The notes beneath the pieces were generated by a model that worked only from the letters and a program-made list of their open reading frames with translations, made no database searches and had not been told where the DNA came from. This document shows, piece after piece, positions 928 through 26,350 of a DNA stretch of 64,000 bases. This DNA is from Polyangiaceae bacterium (GTDB taxonomy: Bacteria; Myxococcota_A; Polyangia; Polyangiales; Polyangiaceae), in NCBI GenBank assembly GCA_965222375.1, contig CBDCTZ010000013.1, positions 736,001 to 800,000 on the forward strand, read 5' to 3'. Within the stretch, counting starts at the first letter, position 1. Each line of letters starts with the position of its first letter. Made by a program: the position numbers and the translations under genes.

Positions 928-1510
928 GTTCGCCCCCGATCAAGAACAGTTTTTCACGCGCGGAAACCTTGGTCAAAAAATGGTTTCGCGGAGCGAGCTT
1001 GGCGGCTAACTCCGCGGGCGTGTACACCACTGCGTTCACCTCGCGGCGAGTTTCTTCCTCCGCGCCGCGTATTGCGTCGACGACTTCCGCAAACGTTACG
1101 TCTCCAACAACGAGCAGGTCGATGTCACTGTGTTCGTTCTCGGTGCCTCGAGCCAACGATCCAAAAATGAAGGCGACCTCGATGCGATCGGTCAGCGGCA
1201 CGAGTGCTTGCGCCAAGACCGCCGCAGCTCCCAGTGTCTTGCGCACGATCGTCCGCAACTCTTCGAAGATGGGGCATGCAGCGTCAGCTTGAAAGTAGAC
1301 GTGCTGGCCATCGCGGGTTCGTCGGATGATGTTCGCGCGAGAAAGCCGCTCGAGTTCTCGCTGGATGCTGCCGACGCCGAGTCCCGTCAGCGACACGATT
1401 TCCCGCAAGTAGAAGCGCCGATGCGGTTGACCGAAGAGCAGCCCCAGCACGCCCTGCCGCGCCTTGGGGAAAAGGGCGGCCGGTATCGCACTGGCGACGA
1501 ATGAACCCAT
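899..1510 (-). CDS. wHTH + minimal nucleotidyltransferase (MNT) protein, putative antitoxin/autorepressor
   Basis: N-terminal HTH (FYLREIVSLTGLGVGSIQRELERL) and Pol-beta NTase motif FGSLARG...SDIDLLVVG; overlaps the HEPN-like gene start. Confidence 0.85.
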   Translation of the reverse strand: MGSFVASAIPAALFPKARQGVLGLLFGQPHRRFYLREIVSLTGLGVGSIQRELERLSRANIIRRTRDGQHVYFQADAACPIFEELRTIVRKTLGAAAVLAQALVPLTDRIEVAFIFGSLARGTENEHSDIDLLVVGDVTFAEVVDAIRGAEEETRREVNAVVYTPAELAAKLAPRNHFLTKVSAREKLFLIGGEREFAALSRQ

Positions 1511-1541
1511 TATGGGTACATTTGTACTCGAATTGAGTACA
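1502..1541. promoter_or_regulatory. Two tandem 19-bp palindromic operators at the MNT start
   Basis: TGAACCCATTATGGGTACA (1502-1520) and TGTACTCGAATTGAGTACA (1523-1541), 21 bp apart. Confidence 0.7.
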
Positions 1542-1657
1542 CCTAGCAACCTTCGCCAGTGCCGGGGCCTGGCCCCGCACTAGACTAGGGGCCCAACGCC
1601 GCCCCGGCGCCACGACCCCAACCAACCAACACCATCAAACGCCGGGCTGATTCGACT

Positions 1658-2686
1658 TCAGGGCTTCCAGTCCGGAGGCGGGCTGGGGACGGGGATGCAT
1701 TTCTGCTCGGTGGCCAAAGCGCTGTAGGCGCTTTCAGCGGGATAGGAATAGCCGAAGAGCATGCACATTTCGTTGTCGCCAATGCCTTCGACGATGGTCT
1801 TGTTGTGGGTGTTCTTCCAGGTGCAGCCAAAGCGCCAGCCGTTGCCTTGGGAAAGGTCGATGGCGGGCTCGTAGGAGTAGATGTCACTGGCTTCGTCGAA
1901 ACCGGTGTCTTCGAGGAAGATTTCGCCGTCCTTGTCGCCGCCCACGTAGCTGATGAAGAAGCGCTCGCCCAGGGCATGCATGTGCGGCATCGCGTCGACG
2001 ATCTTCATGGGCTCGCCGATCCAACACTCTGTTTCGACGGAATGCTCACTCTTCGGGGGAATTTCGAAGTCCTGAATCGCCCAGAAGAATGGCGCGATCT
2101 CCTGAGTCACGTCCTCCTCAGGCACGGTGAACCACTCGTACTTGGGGGCGACGGTGATGGGTTTTGCGGACGTGTTCAGGTAGTGCAGCCGGGCAACGAT
2201 CTCGTAGCCATCCTTGATGCGATAGGCCTGACCTGGACTGAAACGACGCCACTCGGTGCCGACCAGCTGCGTGGAAGAGCCGAAAAGGACGCTGCCCCCA
2301 CCAAGCACGTCCCCGGCTTCGCCGCCGAAGACTCCACCCTTGCCCTTTTCGCAGGGGCGGATCCCTTCACCGGTCTTCTTGCGAGTGGTCAGATTGCCGT
2401 GATGGAGGCCAGCGGTGGTGGTCAGGCTGGCTCCGCCCACGAAGCGACTCGGCCCGTTCAGCTCGAGGGGGAAAACCCAACACGGAGTCTTTTCGTCCCC
2501 GGGCTGCAGCGTGATTTCCGGGACCTGAATCGAAAAACCACCGATCGCGTTCGGCGGCGGTCCCTGCCCAGGCAGGGTGCCCGGCATGCCAGCGCCGCCG
2601 CCAGGCGTCGTCGGCTCGGACTCGGACCCACAACCCGACAGCAACGCCAGGCAGACAGCCGGTAGAAAAGGAATCAAGTAGCGCAT
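1658..2686 (-). CDS. Lipoprotein with copper type II ascorbate-dependent monooxygenase-like (PHM/DBH) fold
   Basis: Lipobox LLSGC; GLHHG, LHY, MPHMH and NEMC copper-ligand motifs. Confidence 0.75.
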   Translation of the reverse strand: MRYLIPFLPAVCLALLSGCGSESEPTTPGGGAGMPGTLPGQGPPPNAIGGFSIQVPEITLQPGDEKTPCWVFPLELNGPSRFVGGASLTTTAGLHHGNLTTRKKTGEGIRPCEKGKGGVFGGEAGDVLGGGSVLFGSSTQLVGTEWRRFSPGQAYRIKDGYEIVARLHYLNTSAKPITVAPKYEWFTVPEEDVTQEIAPFFWAIQDFEIPPKSEHSVETECWIGEPMKIVDAMPHMHALGERFFISYVGGDKDGEIFLEDTGFDEASDIYSYEPAIDLSQGNGWRFGCTWKNTHNKTIVEGIGDNEMCMLFGYSYPAESAYSALATEQKCIPVPSPPPDWKP

Positions 2687-2780
2687 GACTCAGCAGGCGA
2701 CGCCGCCTGCATCCAGTGTGACGCATTTCGGCGCTGCCGCGCAGTTCTATACGTTCTGCATTTACAGAATGCAAGTCGCG

Positions 2781-2838
2781 AAAAAAACCCGACCACAAAA
2801 AGGGTCCAGGGCGACCCGGTCACCCGGATCGCCCTGGA
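2781..2838 (-). terminator. Intrinsic terminator closing the minus-strand non-coding transcript
   Basis: Minus strand: UCCAGGGCGAUCCGG-GUGA-CCGGGUCGCCCUGGA (15-bp stem) followed by CCCUUUUU and a second U7 tract. Confidence 0.75.
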
Positions 2839-2849
2839 GGAAGTTTACG

Positions 2850-3480
2850 TTTTGCCGATGGTGGACGTCTGTCCCGACATTTCTGCCTCGCATGCATCAG
2901 CCTCCCTCGACACGCTTGCTGCGTTCCGAAGGCATCATCATCTCAATGTGGGCTCTCTATCCCCAGGACCCGCCAATTCGCGCTGGCTTGATCCGGGCAG
3001 GGAGCAGAGTCGTTAGCTCGTGCTCGCTTCGGCGAAGAGCGCCGACGATGCACCTCTGTTTCTACATCCGCCACATTTCTGCGACGGCGCGTGTGCTGAC
3101 CTCCCGCGTCGAATCGACTGGAAAAGCCTTTACCGCCATAACCGCTCAGCCTCTGACGTTTTATGTCGCCTCACAGACACCGCAGGCAGCGCTTCAGTCG
3201 CTGCTCACAGCTGGCTAATTCGTCGTAAACGCTTGCGCGCTCCGTCTCGAACTTCGCATTCACCTGCTTGGCCAGAGCTGCGCTGACACCGAACGGATTA
3301 AGATCAGTGCTGCTCACAACTCAAAACGCCTCGAACCGTACTAGACAGGAACCCCGCAGGTTACCCCGCGGATCGACACTTATCGTTCGTTGTTCACGAA
3401 TTAACAAGCATCGCGCACCCGTTCGCCTGACTCGCACCGCGACAGTTCTTTCAAAACTGCCTCGGCCACCATCGTGCTAG
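2850..3480 (-). ncRNA. Candidate large structured ncRNA B (~630 nt), family not recognised
   Basis: Ends pair (2856-2864 with 3466-3474); GUAA, GCAA, UUCG and GAAA-containing hairpins with G-U pairs favouring the minus strand; no credible ORF. Confidence 0.6.
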
Positions 3481-3554
3481 ACCGCATGTTACGTGCGCCT
3501 TACGGCACTCGCTCACACGGCCAAAGATGCGTCCGGCCGGTTCGTGCAACCCAC

Positions 3555-3570
3555 ATGTCAAAGAAGAGCA
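3555..3570 (-). promoter_or_regulatory. boxA-like antitermination sequence upstream of ncRNA B
   Basis: Minus strand UGCUCUUCUUUGACAU resembles the rrn boxA (UGCUCUUUAACA). Confidence 0.4.
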
Positions 3571-3669
3571 CCCGAATTCATATGTGAAAATCTTCCCGCG
3601 CAAGGCGAGAGATGAGCGCTTTCACTTCACGGCAAGAAGCGCCCGCTTCGGTCGGCAATGAATAGATTT

Positions 3670-4400
3670 GTTTTTACCTCTCCGAGTTCAACCAACCGCT
3701 TTTTAGGCGTGTTGAATCCGGCGACGTAGAGGGCCGACCTCTGACGCCTTCGTCACCGCCACTTCCGAACCCCGATCTCTCGAAAGCCCTTCCGTGACGA
3801 CCAAGACCGCCTCCACGACCCATCCGTGAAGATGAACCGCTTGCAGCAACCCAAGGCGCCTTCCACCGACGAGGAGACTTTCTAGGTCCCTTTGCGAGCT
3901 TAAGGTGAGAACTCACGTCCCCTGCCCGCTCACGACGCCATTTCGCTCGCCCCGATGTTTCCACCCGGGTTCGCTAGATTCTGCCACTCGCCCTAGCCGC
4001 AACCAGGGTTTGCGTCCGAATCCGACGCCGCTCGTCAACTTCTGCTTTCAAAACACATGATCGAGCACACCAACTCAGCTCGACTCCTCACACGGAACCA
4101 CGCTTTAACGCATCCCGCTGCCCCAAGCCCGAGGGCTTGTTGCCGTGAGCGACACGACACCGGAGTTACCCCCGGCTGGCCCGCGAAGGACCTGCCGCAT
4201 CGGCCGAGAACAGTGGAGCCAGCTGTGCGTACTGCGACGCAGAGGCCGACTCGTGCCGTTCTCGAACACCTCTTTGTCGCGAGTCATCTGCCGGTCCGGG
4301 GCTGAAGTTAATTCATCCGGCGGCCAGGATGCTCGCCAAGGCCCCTCCGCTTCACCGTCCGCGCGAACGGAACAGGCTGGCCGAGAGACCGAGGTGTCTG
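3670..4400 (-). ncRNA. Candidate large structured ncRNA A (~730 nt), family not recognised
   Basis: Hairpins CCGGGG-GUAA-CUCCGG (4160-4175), GGUG-GAAA-CAUC (3951-3969), CAAGCC-CUCG-GGCUUG (4124-4139); long-range ACACCUC/GAGGUGU pairing; no credible ORF. Confidence 0.5.
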
Positions 4401-4553
4401 ACTACTCTAGGGGGCCAAGCCGAGGGCAAGCTCGGCAGGACCGGGACCGCCTATGAACCCCCACCCGCGCTCACGCGCTCAGTCGTTCGGTTTAGGTGGG
4501 GAGGTCAGTCCGCACGCCATTTTTCGCTCGGATGCTGGAGGGCGTTGAAGCGC

Positions 4554-4576
4554 CCAACTGCCCACTGGGCAGTTGG
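4554..4576. promoter_or_regulatory. Perfect 11-bp inverted repeat, probable protein-binding site
   Basis: CCAACTGCCCA-C-TGGGCAGTTGG. Confidence 0.5.
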
Positions 4577-4779
4577 TCCCAACTGAAATCCGGCGGTGGT
4601 TCTACCGTGTCGGTGGAAAAGGCTTGCGACCTTTCCGAACCCGACCGGTGCTCCACGGCGCCCCTGGGTTGTCAACGAACCGTTCGCTTGTTGGCAGATG
4701 TGCCGCGAACTTCCGAAAACAGTTATGCCTCGAAGGGCCCATGCTGCGCAACACAAAACAACTTTCGTTTCGGAATTTG

Positions 4780-4799
4780 TTATCCACAGGCTATCCCCA
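4780..4799 (+). promoter_or_regulatory. DnaA box pair
   Basis: Perfect TTATCCACA at 4780-4788 and degenerate CTATCCCCA at 4791-4799. Confidence 0.5.
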
Positions 4800-5049
4800 G
4801 GTTGATGATGAGCGCCTCGACGTGGGCGCGGAGCTATTGATTCAAGTGCTTGAAGTCATTGCTAATTGTAGCGAGTCGCAGAGTTCCGCCGAGCGCCATT
4901 AGCTGCACTGTTGCATTTGTTTATATCATTTGTTTATCGTGTCTTAAGTCAATAAGAAAGCGTGTTTGATGCTTCGTCTGAGCAGAAGCTTGGCGCCGGC
5001 TGACGGCATCGCGCTCAAGGATCTCCAAACAGCACCGTTCAGCTGATTC

Positions 5050-6324
5050 ATGGTGGCCCACGCTCCGAGCTATGCCCTCACACCCCAAACAGCAGTGACC
5101 GAACGACCCCGGAGTGAACGGACTACATCCGCCCACCCTGCGCCTCACAGCATCAGCTCCGTTTCCCGCACGGCCAAGCGTGGCTCGGTGCTTGTCGTGG
5201 ATGACGATGCCATGCTGCGCCGCAGTCTCGATCGCGCTCTGTCCGCGGAAGGCTACGAAGTCGTGACATGCCCAGACGGTCACTCCGCCATCGCGCGCCT
5301 GATTGAGCGGCCCGTGGATGTGATCGTGAGCGATATCGCGATGCCGGGAATGGACGGGATCCAGCTGCTCCGCGAAGTACGCACCCACGACCTTCACGTA
5401 CCGGTCGTCCTGATCACTGGCGAGCCTGCGGTGTCGACCGCAGTTCAAGCGCTCGAGTACGGAGCGTTCCACTACTTGACGAAACCGGTGGACCCCCACG
5501 AGCTGGACAAGGTCATCGAGCGTGGCGCACGCCTTCACCGAATGGCCCAAGTCAAAGAGCAAGCGGCCGAGTTGCTCGGAAACCGTGGGGGCAGAGCGGC
5601 GGATCGTGCGGGCCTGGAAGCCAGCTTCGAGGGCGCACTGGCCACGCTCTGGATCGCCTACCAGCCCATCGTTTGCGCGCGAAACCAGACCATCTTCGGC
5701 CACGAGGCGCTGCTCCGCAGCGATGAGCCCAGCCTACCTCACCCGGGTGCCGTCATCGACGCGGCCGAACGCCTGGGGGAACTGCAAAAACTCGGCCGCG
5801 CGATCCGAGATCGTGCAGCTGTGCCTGCGCAGGAGCGGCCCCATGCTGCGAGAACCCTATTCGTCAATTTGCACGTCCACGACCTGCTTGACCCGACACT
5901 GGTCAACCCAGACGCGCCCCTGTCGAAGATCGCTGACCGAGTCGTGCTGGAGATCACCGAGCGCTCGAGCCTCGACGAGGTCAAGGACGTGCGCAATCGC
6001 GTACTGGCACTCCGGGAGATGGGTTTCCGAATCGCCGTCGACGACCTGGGTGCAGGCTACGCAGGACTAACCAGCTTCGCTCAGTTGGAGCCGGAGGTCG
6101 TGAAACTCGACATGAGTCTAGTGCGCGACGTGCACCGCTCCTCCACGAAGCAGAAGGTCATTCGGTCGATGGCCAGGCTGTGCCAGGACATGGGAATGCT
6201 CGTGGTCGGTGAGGGCGTCGAGAACGCCGAGGAGCGCGATACGCTGATTGAGCTGGGCTGCGACCTGTTGCAAGGCTTCTACTTCGCGAAACCCGCACGA
6301 CCGTTTCCGAGCGTGAGGTTCTGA
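5050..6324 (+). CDS. Response regulator with EAL c-di-GMP phosphodiesterase domain
   Basis: REC (VVDDD, SDIAMPGMDG, KP) plus HEALLR, DDLGAG, KLD, EGVE, QGF. Confidence 0.93.
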   Translation: MVAHAPSYALTPQTAVTERPRSERTTSAHPAPHSISSVSRTAKRGSVLVVDDDAMLRRSLDRALSAEGYEVVTCPDGHSAIARLIERPVDVIVSDIAMPGMDGIQLLREVRTHDLHVPVVLITGEPAVSTAVQALEYGAFHYLTKPVDPHELDKVIERGARLHRMAQVKEQAAELLGNRGGRAADRAGLEASFEGALATLWIAYQPIVCARNQTIFGHEALLRSDEPSLPHPGAVIDAAERLGELQKLGRAIRDRAAVPAQERPHAARTLFVNLHVHDLLDPTLVNPDAPLSKIADRVVLEITERSSLDEVKDVRNRVLALREMGFRIAVDDLGAGYAGLTSFAQLEPEVVKLDMSLVRDVHRSSTKQKVIRSMARLCQDMGMLVVGEGVENAEERDTLIELGCDLLQGFYFAKPARPFPSVRF

Positions 6325-6325
6325 G

Positions 6326-7405
6326 ATGGCTTTGCGCTCCTATGCGCCACCGTCCTTTCAGCCTGAGTCCGGGGCGCGCTCCGCCCTCTTGCCGGAGCCG
6401 CCGCCCTCGGCTGCCTACCCAGCCTCGAGTACGGGAACGACCACGCCAGAAATGGCCGCTGTGCGCGTGCCCGCTTCGGACATTCCTGGCGACAACCTCG
6501 ACTCGTGGGAGGAAATCACGGACGTCGCGCGCCTCACGGAGGTTGGAGAGCCCCCGGCGGCAGTGGATGGCCGGGATCGGGCAGTGCTTCTGCGCGCTGA
6601 CGGCGTGGGTGCGGGACAGGTCCTCTCCCTAGGTGCAGGAGGCGCCGTGGTGGGGCGAGCACCGGACGCAAGTATCCACCTCGATGACGCAGGAGTGAGC
6701 CGCCGCCACGCCCGCTTGACGCCCACACTGTCGGGACGCCACTTCATCGAAGACCTCGATTCGAGCAACGGTACCTTCGTGAGGGGTCAACGTGTCGAAC
6801 GCGCCTGGCTTCAGGATGGCGACATGATCCAGCTGGGGCCGCGCGTCAGTTTTCGCTACGTCGTAGTCGATCAATCCGGCGAGGCGCTGTTTCGCCAGCT
6901 CTACCAGTCCAGCGTCCGGGATTCTCTGACGGGAGCGTACAACCGCCGACACTTCGACGAGCGCCTGACCGCGGAGCTCGCCTACGCGGATCGGCACAGC
7001 ACTGATCTATCCCTGGTCTTGTTCGATATCGACCACTTCAAGAAGGTCAACGACAACTTCGGTCATCCTGCCGGCGACGCCGTTCTGTGCCACGTCGTCA
7101 AGCTGGCTCAACGCGAACTTCGAGCGGAGGACGTCTTTGCCCGCTACGGTGGCGAGGAGTTCGCGATGTTGCTGCGAGGGGTTGGGCCGTCAGGCGCCGT
7201 CCGCGCAGCAAGTCGCATTCGAACGACGATCGAGGCAAACGCGAGCCAACACGAGGGCCGCATGATTTCTGTGACCGTGAGTGGCGGTGTCGCGTCGTTG
7301 AGCGAGACCGCAGAGCGCTCGGCTCAAACCCTGGTCGGGCGGGCAGATGCACGGCTGTATCGGGCCAAGCACGAGGGCCGCAACCGCATGATTTCGCGGG
7401 GCTAG
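6326..7405 (+). CDS. FHA-domain diguanylate cyclase
   Basis: FHA (GR...VSRRHA...SSNGT) plus DIDHFK, RAED I-site and RYGGEEF. Confidence 0.93.
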   Translation: MALRSYAPPSFQPESGARSALLPEPPPSAAYPASSTGTTTPEMAAVRVPASDIPGDNLDSWEEITDVARLTEVGEPPAAVDGRDRAVLLRADGVGAGQVLSLGAGGAVVGRAPDASIHLDDAGVSRRHARLTPTLSGRHFIEDLDSSNGTFVRGQRVERAWLQDGDMIQLGPRVSFRYVVVDQSGEALFRQLYQSSVRDSLTGAYNRRHFDERLTAELAYADRHSTDLSLVLFDIDHFKKVNDNFGHPAGDAVLCHVVKLAQRELRAEDVFARYGGEEFAMLLRGVGPSGAVRAASRIRTTIEANASQHEGRMISVTVSGGVASLSETAERSAQTLVGRADARLYRAKHEGRNRMISRG

Positions 7406-26277: not shown

Positions 26278-26350
26278 GCCTCCGTAGCTCAGTGGATAGA
26301 GCAGTGGTTTCCTAAACCATTGGTCGCAAGTTCGACTCTTGCCGGAGGCG
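26278..26350 (+). tRNA. tRNA-Arg(CCT)
   Basis: GCCTCCG/CGGAGGC acceptor stem, anticodon loop TTCCTAA, GTTCGACTC T-loop; no encoded CCA; TTGACC-N17-CAAAGT promoter candidate at 26232-26260. Confidence 0.96.

Follow-up and report, generated by a model that had tools for sequence, protein, structure and literature searches.

To our knowledge, very few large structured RNAs have been described from bacteria apart from rRNA, RNase P RNA, transfer-messenger RNA (tmRNA), group I and group II introns, and the OLE, ROOL and GOLLD RNAs, and each new one has so far opened new biology or a new RNA architecture. Independent small RNAs, such as 6S RNA and the CsrB-type RNAs, measure 180-400 nt and have simple architectures, and the OLE gene is located inside a protein-coding operon. 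In the sections of the source that deal with these RNAs (PMC12286853), OLE is a dimer-forming RNA of 577 nt from extremophilic bacteria with known partner proteins, among them OapA. ROOL is described there as a homo-octamer, and GOLLD, many members of which exceed 800 nt, as larger than the other two; the genes for ROOL and GOLLD lie in phages or prophages, close to tRNA islands. Here, we analysed a stretch of 64,000 nt from a Polyangiaceae bacterium (assembly GCA_965222375.1, contig CBDCTZ010000013.1, positions 736,001 to 800,000), called the window hereafter and used for all coordinates, in which a reading of the bare letters, referred to as the original prediction, had proposed a self-contained structured non-coding RNA (ncRNA) of ~630 nt on the minus strand at 2850-3480. 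The flagged 630 nt are the 3' domain, that is, the last third, of a single ncRNA gene of ~1.9 kb on that strand.

The best overall explanation, to which we assign a probability of roughly 0.8, is a single-copy, independently transcribed and highly abundant structured ncRNA of ~1.9 kb, confined to one order and acting in trans as a scaffold, with the flagged segment as its domain III. Like OLE, it is large, intricately folded, lineage-restricted, abundant and thought to form the core of a trans-acting complex, and the dimer described for OLE in the sections cited can be set against the tandem paralogous domains of this RNA. Unlike OLE, it is ~1.9 kb long and myxobacterial, and it stands alone, with its own predicted promoter and terminator and no constant protein neighbour. 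It shares with GOLLD and ROOL the character of a giant ornate RNA with GNRA-type loops and long-range contacts, whereas it differs from them in being chromosomal, present in single copy, more than twice as long and without any match among the phages and plasmids searched. Its kilobase size, G-rich sense strand, domains closed by long-range helices and very high abundance recall 16S and 23S rRNA, as do the possible pairing of the 5' and 3' flanks and a putatively strong promoter with a T/A-rich upstream region; unlike rRNA, it matches no rRNA model, exists in one copy, does not extend beyond a part of one order and is lacking in many of the family's genomes. The 6S and CsrB-type RNAs are also independent, abundant genes with their own promoter and terminator, paired ends and action in trans, of which the promoter, the paired ends and the action in trans are predicted or proposed for our RNA, but they are far smaller and simpler, and our RNA has no Rfam match. 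Group II introns resemble it in their multi-domain fold, GNRA tetraloops and size of 0.6-2.5 kb, in contrast to which it has no intron open reading frame (ORF), no match to domain V/VI or D1-D4, no exons, a single copy and its own predicted promoter.

Searches with Rfam 15 (cmscan) found no family matching the RNA at gathering score in the window, where the sole match at that level was a tRNA at 26278-26350 on the plus strand, which lies 22 kb from the RNA and is the nearest tRNA to it. Within 2300-5000, a threshold of E<=10 gave two chance matches only, one of them the terminator hairpin, and 12 divergent homologue loci gave no match at E<=0.5. The covariance models of OLE RNA (RF01071), ROOL (RF03087) and GOLLD (RF01998) matched neither the window nor the homologues, and no match was obtained with those of rRNA, RNase P RNA, tmRNA, signal recognition particle RNA and 6S RNA. 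The original prediction had named this search as a check, and none of ROOL, GOLLD, OLE, RNase P, tmRNA, rRNA or group II introns was returned. Among 50,697 phage records and 72,556 plasmids there was no match to the RNA; an association with phages or plasmids was rejected, the single 17-mer match on a viral contig being a chance one inside coding DNA. No description of the RNA was found in the open-access papers and bioRxiv preprints searched. Given the failed memberships, the chromosomal site and a length more than twice that of its counterparts, we rate it as new: within the open literature searched, it looks like a new class of bacterial RNA, and no other bacterial RNA known to us that lacks an ORF and lies outside the ribosome would be as large. 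It exceeds twice the length quoted for GOLLD in the sections cited above, is expressed in nature and shows deep covariation. Two of its traits are unusual, a duplicated domain and the DnaA-box-like sites conserved in its predicted promoter, and it indicates that kilobase-sized RNA genes still lie hidden in the 'intergenic' DNA of well-sampled phyla.

Extent and expression of the RNA gene

The conserved and transcribed unit runs from ~4714 to ~2800 and encloses the flagged segment. Block conservation, contigs from RNA sequencing runs, the lack of a conserved ORF and covariation together delimit the whole gene, given here as the predicted primary transcript of ~1.9 kb (2797-4714, minus strand), of which the genome carries one copy. 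From about 2690 to 4920, the DNA is without a long ORF and is G-rich on the minus strand throughout. The 5' end is marked by a near-invariant sequence, GGAAGUUCGCGGCACAUC (4697-4714), with few changes across families, and TCGGAAGTTCGCGGCACATC at 4716-4697 is the longest run that is invariant within the genus. At the 3' end, an intrinsic terminator of unusually conserved sequence (2797-2838) comprises a 15-bp stem (2838-2805), a GUGA loop and a T run after it, so that the terminator which the original prediction had placed directly behind its RNA was indeed found there. The 24-nt core of this terminator, GGCGAUCCGGGUGACCGGGUCGCC, recurs in 44 homologues with no more than seven changes, and its stem is 97% canonical with double changes at 10 pairs. 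A simple promoter and terminator scan found no internal promoter-like or terminator-like site between 2838 and 4925. Between their 5' motif and the conserved core of the terminator, the homologues measure 1.64 to ~2.3 kb; the 3' segment is constant at 716-886 nt, and the length variation falls in the 5' part.

The first 9 nt of GGAAGUUCGCGGCACAUC are proposed to be the 5' strand of a terminal stem, for which CG..AACUUCC at 2839-2849 would provide the 3' strand (partner 4714-4706). RNAalifold on six congeners pairs the two, and a RAMYUUCC element precedes the terminator in most homologues. In such a fold, the 5' GGAAGUUCG would pair with the 3' ..AACUUCC and seal the ends of the RNA, which may afterwards be trimmed to about 4704-2854.

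Expression was apparent in 13 RNA runs from ~11 studies (marine, sediment and plastic), each containing 30-52% of the stretch's 31-mers; two sludge runs with such 31-mers are listed as probably DNA. Contigs from four RNA runs, aligned to window 1200-6800, were confined to ~2854-4705, ending at 2854, 2856, 2883 and 2903 on the 3' side and at 4697-4705 on the 5' side. In one run (X1, 60 Mbases), a single contig of 1,798 nt covers 2903-4697 at a word depth of 893; a second run (X2, 204 Mbases) reaches a depth of ~1,079, and a third (X5) has a contig of 1,422 nt over 3158-4558 at a depth of 184. Coverage of 1200-2850 and 4750-6800 was zero in X1 and X2, leaving both neighbouring genes bare, and the RNA is far more abundant than the RNA of the neighbouring genes. 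With word depth read as coverage, rough arithmetic suggests that it would make up about 1-3% of all letters in these two runs. In both of them, Illumina adapter letters adjoin 4704/4705, a junction at which a 5' end may lie, ~10 nt into the predicted transcript. Three metagenome contigs (L032, L030 and L024) begin 0, 5 and 20 nt upstream of GGAAG, as would be expected if they had been assembled from the RNA itself, and they agree with the predicted start. A further contig of X5 (1,827 nt, depth 369) aligns at 2977-3038 and 3545-3574 only, and the 508 letters that separate these two parts are different ones; it probably comes from a relative with a middle too diverged to align, and points to the expression of several related RNAs in that sediment.

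The block contains six ORFs of 70-177 codons, including the one at 2685-3218 whose codon-type conservation the original prediction had singled out as evidence against an RNA. No such conservation was seen: all six are interrupted or frame-shifted in the congeners, and their coding readings were rejected. In the congener alignment, variable columns are spread evenly over codon positions without 3-periodicity and indels are mainly of 1-2 nt, and three scanned ORFs of the block had no match in Pfam. The locus therefore lacks a conserved reading frame, as is generally required of a structured ncRNA gene.

Covariation and coding strand

Base pairing was assessed in 36 non-redundant homologue segments of the 3' part and 35 of the 5' part, with the two halves aligned separately (MAFFT L-INS-i) and folded with RNAalifold. 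In the 3' part, the 196 predicted pairs are 86.1% canonical, compared with 38-44% when the partner is slid by 1-3 columns, and 154 of them show double changes (87-114 on the slides). The 289 pairs of the 5' part behave alike, with 85.6% canonical cells vs 40-44% and double changes in 220 pairs vs 133-153. A model-fitted alignment of 54 sequences over 3573-3414 has 90.3% of its cells paired, whereas shuffles average 70.8% (0/500 as high) and slides 36-47%; it contains 215 double-change cells vs 66 after shuffling, and its covariation score is 0.545 vs 0.217. Pairs are thus upheld by compensatory substitutions above the level of the controls, and the homologues with compensatory changes that the original prediction called for do exist, in myxobacteria.

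The fold is that of the minus strand. In the predicted helices, 995 G-U cells stand against 226 A-C cells across the 3' part, and the corresponding counts for the 5' part are 1608 and 348, an excess which identifies the minus strand as the RNA strand; the orientation had been deduced earlier from G-U pairs in a few stems, and this more than fourfold excess bears the argument out. In agreement, the minus strand of 2850-3480 folds at -255.3 kcal/mol (z -3.49, 0/20 dinucleotide shuffles as stable), compared with z -0.57 and 7/20 shuffles as stable for the plus strand. Hairpin loops are often conserved as GNRA, in the forms GCAA/GAAA and GCAA/GCGA, with GUGA in the terminator.

The sequences quoted in the original prediction all occur at their minus-strand coordinates, including CGAUGGUGG at 3474-3466 and CCACCAUCG at 2864-2856, and three of four hairpins are well supported across the 36 homologues. 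The GNRA hairpin CCGCGGG-GUAA-CCUGCGG (3371-3354) is canonical in 199/250 cells (80%), with double changes at 5/7 pairs. The hairpin GCAGUUU-UGAAA-GAACUGU (3460-3442) is canonical in 215/249 (86%), with a conserved UGAC/UGAA loop and four pairs in which both sides have changed in 12-17 of 33 sequences. The small hairpin GCGC-GCAA-GCGU (3240-3229) is canonical in 115/141 cells (82%) with double changes at 4/4 pairs, its loop reading GCAA in 17/36, GCGA in 8/36 and GAAA in 3/36. In the UUCG hairpin (3407-3390), the tip is not maintained (61/179 canonical, 34%) and the base of the arm, 3413-3404/3383-3374, is kept.

The larger frame of the original prediction did not survive. The helix that was to close the ~630-nt unit, 3474-3466/2864-2856, is canonical in 160/324 cells (49%), near the ~40% of the slid background; it is rejected for its low conservation, and its 3' strand pairs locally with 2901-2895. 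The domain that holds the flagged segment is closed instead by about 3568-3546 with 2956-2936, ~90 nt further out, and what had been called 'RNA B', a label that implies a separate upstream RNA, is continuous with the upstream part, since the 1,798-nt contig spans 2903-4697 and long-range helices join the parts. Hence, a structured, transcribed myxobacterial RNA on the minus strand stands, and its size becomes ~1.9 kb in place of ~630 nt.

Domain architecture and internal duplication

The model suggests a fold of three large domains of ~630, 500 and 640 nt, each closed by a long-range helix. Domain I (~630 nt, 4069-4695, with approximate boundaries) would be closed by 4695-4677/4086-4069, in which 16 pairs are 85% canonical and 10 show double changes. 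For domain II (~500 nt, 3568-4068), the predicted closing helix is 4068-4055/3582-3568, with 13 pairs, 89% canonical, nine of them with double changes. Domain III (~640 nt, 2936-3573) holds nearly all of 2850-3480 and has a predicted closing helix at 3568-3546/2956-2936, whose core AUGUGGG/CCCACAU is canonical in 220/252 cells (87%) with double changes at 7/7 pairs. Beyond it, the 3' helix GCUGAUG/CAUCGGC (2854-2901, 2901-2895 with 2860-2854) is canonical in 176/245 cells (72%), with double changes at 6/7 pairs. All of these elements are on the minus strand.

Domains II and III look like tandem paralogues, as judged from profile matches and motifs in the same order. A covariance model of the domain III start, termed R1 (window 3573-3414, built from 33 sequences), also matches the start of domain II in ~20 sequences; in the window, this second match lies at 4070-3934 (22 bits), and in one homologue (L086) it reaches 37 bits, with an E of 4e-10 in a small search. 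An nhmmer profile of domain III matched domain II in 10 targets at E<=0.01, and the reciprocal profile of domain II matched domain III in eight, with 0 matches in the reversed-sequence control in both cases. By eye, the two domains share, in the same order, GGNUGCNCG, UUGCAGAAGUCGG, CUAGC and GCGAA, as well as GAAGGCG..UGGGU, GUGACG..CGUCAGAGG and CCGAAGC, and the repeat modules correspond at 4070-3934 vs 3573-3414 and at 3868-3797 vs ~3334-3264. Domains I and II are weakly similar, matching each other in 3-4 targets (control 0), and nhmmer found no match between domains I and III; perhaps domain I originated as a third copy and has diverged further.

Clade-specific expansions were also observed. 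In genus g75 (L075, L076 and L104), the first hairpin of domain III carries an insertion of ~100 nt, and in genus g95 (L085-L090, L105 and L106), the 5' two-thirds are up to ~600 nt longer, so that the internal anchor GGGUGCU falls at 1600-1816, compared with ~1250 elsewhere.

Taxonomic distribution

A BLAST search against 40 relatives detected the block (~2793-4810) in 5/5 congeners at 69-85% identity and gave no real match outside the genus. Scanning with GGAAGTTCGCGGCACATCNGCC retrieved 12 genome loci, titled uncultured Polyangiaceae, Myxococcales or 'delta proteobacterium', and a pattern one letter shorter matched 14 metagenome contigs; several loci are just 50-60% identical to the window and still collinear over the full length. 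The 5' 22-mer, allowing up to two mismatches, occurred in 59/383 genomes of the family and 20/89 genera, with ~11 matches in the reversed-pattern control. When 40 of these loci were checked, the anchor stood at the aligned place in 34, five were false and one was truncated by a contig end.

R1 extended the range to 24/151 genomes sampled across the order, including genera without the 5' pattern, and to four other families: f5 (1/1), f11 (3/9), f14 (2/2) and f23 (1/1). In the distant-family loci, the 5' motif has a variant form, GGAAGGUCGCGGUACGU, which precedes the R1 match by ~1.0-1.4 kb. When 151 genomes sampled from the phylum were searched, R1 was found in the home family (f1) only. Within the genomes searched, the RNA is restricted to a single order of myxobacteria, Polyangiales-like. 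A complete 12.3-Mb genome (G330) carries a true copy, and genetics, pull-downs and cryo-EM may be possible there if its organism is cultured; a second R1 match in the same genome (L132) was false, being without any landmark of the RNA. Weak partial matches of 81-115 nt (E ~1e-4 to 6e-4) were seen at one place each in five genomes of family f9 (genus g28; G420, G427, G440, G458 and G487), and these may be either a very diverged or reduced relative or chance.

A putative promoter with DnaA-box-like sites

A sigma-70-type promoter is predicted from the sequence at 4722-4760 (minus strand), with a T-rich tract, a -35 element TTGCGC (4751-4746) and a -10 element CATAAC (4727-4722). A simple promoter scan did not list it. 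Two sequence alignments of the locus show it, and across 57 homologues the consensus is TTG-17-CATAA, ~8 nt before GGAAG, which starts at 4714 in the window. The position of this consensus places the predicted start near 4715.

Further upstream on the same strand, at 4780-4800, are DnaA-box-like sites, identified by motif: a perfect TGTGGATAA at 4788-4780, which occurs once in the 64-kb window, and a degenerate CTGGGGATA one helical turn upstream. The DnaA box is a 9-mer with the consensus TTATCCACA or TTGTCCACA, and we take the boxes found here to be the complements of the Escherichia coli-type and the high-G+C-type box. Sense TGTGGA boxes were counted in the 120 nt that precede the 5' motif: 64/67 homologues have one or more and 32 have at least two, against a background of 0.019 per 120 nt in their own genomes. 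The array is fixed in orientation and position, with the proximal box at -80 to -71 and a spacing of 12 or 23 nt. Across homologues, the variants TGTGGATAA and TGTGGACAA occur 45 and 20 times, respectively, and other families have arrays of 2-4 boxes. Candidate DnaA-type boxes are thus clustered near the predicted promoter. DnaA would bind the TGTGGATAA/TGTGGACAA array and thereby tie the level of the RNA to the replication or growth state. A replication origin at the locus was considered and rejected: dnaA is on another contig, and along the contig of the RNA (C13), the cumulative GC skew runs on monotonically past the locus without a turn.

Possible function and alternative explanations

Our best guess is a stable scaffold RNA with a compact fold and a function in trans, which would form either the core of a ribonucleoprotein or an assembly of RNA only. 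In the latter case, the repeated domains might play the role of the separate chains in homo-oligomeric ornate RNAs, and the duplicated domains would provide pseudo-symmetry. A more specific version of this proposal is an undescribed giant RNA class in which a tandem-duplicated domain of ~500-600 nt forms a covalent pseudo-dimer or pseudo-trimer, which is made at near-rRNA-like levels from a DnaA-box promoter and yields a machine-like or cage-like particle coupled to the replication cycle in Polyangiales; we put this forward tentatively, at slightly less than even odds. By the same best guess, the RNA is neither an mRNA or leader nor an antisense RNA or mobile element.

Several points weigh against this picture. 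The scaffold is proposed by analogy, and DnaA binding is read from the motif of the boxes. The domain boundaries come from RNAalifold on separate halves, which conflict on the partners of 3573-3546; the MAFFT alignments are imperfect within the variable arms, and the 54-sequence alignment, being fitted to R1, leans toward the model. The contigs give neither strand, exact ends nor true level, their depths being assembler word depths; the contig ends vary between RNA runs, and the transcription start is a predicted one. The terminal-stem duplex does not differ significantly from random internal windows (mean -13.6 vs -11.8 kcal/mol, among the best 5% in 3/44). No protein gene constantly adjoins the RNA in the clades compared and the distant-family copies. 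Lastly, the distribution is patchy, with no copy seen in either of two complete genomes (14.8 Mb) from genus g104 or in many other genera, which argues against a universal housekeeping role.

The closest competitor of a passive scaffold is another kind of trans-acting RNA, either a large ribozyme or a sponge that titrates one protein. Unpaired motifs are deeply conserved (GCGAACGGGUGCG, CGUCAGAGG, CCGAAGC and the CGCGAA loops), the repeated domains could supply repeated binding or active sites, and the RNA is abundant. A short motif repeated many times, in the manner of CsrB, was not noticed, though no systematic count was made. The present evidence does not separate a ribozyme or a protein sponge from a scaffold, and we consider the former two together unlikely, at about one chance in four. 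Much less probable is a division of the locus into two or more adjacent RNAs, an 'RNA A' followed by the ~630-nt 'RNA B', or a precursor fully cut into domain-sized RNAs like an rRNA operon. Such a division would suit the separate closure of the domains and the broken contigs of two runs (X2 and X11), for example near 4105-4170, as well as the helix 3474-3466/2864-2856, which exists in this sequence and is used by the single-sequence fold. Single contigs nevertheless span 2903-4697 in X1 (1,798 nt) and 3158-4558 in X5 (1,422 nt), the breaks of X2 fall at variant positions, 2838-4925 has no internal promoter-like or terminator-like site, and the helix in question is only 49% canonical across homologues, whereas others, such as 4068-4055/3582-3568, join the parts.

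The remaining explanations appear quite improbable. A known large RNA in highly diverged form (the remnant of a group II intron or other mobile element, an rRNA fragment, RNase P, OLE, ROOL or GOLLD) would account for the size, the density of GNRA loops and the domain-wise closure, which resemble those of group II introns, rRNA and ornate RNAs. Against this stand the failure of Rfam 15 to match the RNA in the window or the 12 divergent homologues, the lack of phage or plasmid matches, and a gene that is single-copy, stable in position within clades, free of a reverse transcriptase or other ORF, and furnished with its own terminator and predicted promoter. Slighter still is the chance that the locus serves in cis, as a leader or regulatory region for the downstream lipoprotein gene or the divergent gene for a REC-EAL response regulator, or that it is a decaying pseudogene. 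The intergenic site, the REC-EAL neighbour in clades A, C, D and F and the position of the TGTGGATAA boxes within the shared intergenic region would be in keeping with a role in cis, but a strong terminator lies between the RNA and the downstream gene, the downstream gene varies by clade, REC-EAL is missing beside the clade B and distant-family copies, and the RNA contigs end at the ends of the RNA and leave the neighbours uncovered; a pseudogene is made unlikely by the compensatory changes and the lack of any frame. A trans-acting scaffold RNA of ~1.9 kb thus remains our preferred explanation.

Neighbouring genes

The genes around the RNA are ordinary chromosomal ones, and their identity differs from clade to clade. 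In clades A, C, D and F, the REC-EAL response regulator is encoded by the gene that diverges from the RNA; this gene is absent beside the clade B and distant-family copies, and in clade B a MscS-like gene occupies its place. A convergent gene is often found downstream of the RNA, and its product appears outer-membrane beta-barrel-like by eye only; none of these genes adjoins the distant-family copies. A conserved protein partner was also sought by synteny and rejected, as tblastn of five neighbouring proteins against ten distant-family loci gave no match.

In the window, the REC-EAL response regulator and an FHA-GGDEF protein are encoded back to back at 5050-7405 on the plus strand, divergent from the RNA. 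On the other side, the lipoprotein gene at 1658-2686 (minus strand) contains a Cu2_monoox_C domain. Between it and the terminator of the RNA, at 2754-2769 (minus strand), is an inverted repeat, TTCTG-N6-CAGAA, which sits in the block CATTCTGTAAATGCAGAATGTATAGAAC, conserved in 6/6 genomes of the genus, and which resembles an operator or promoter of the lipoprotein gene.

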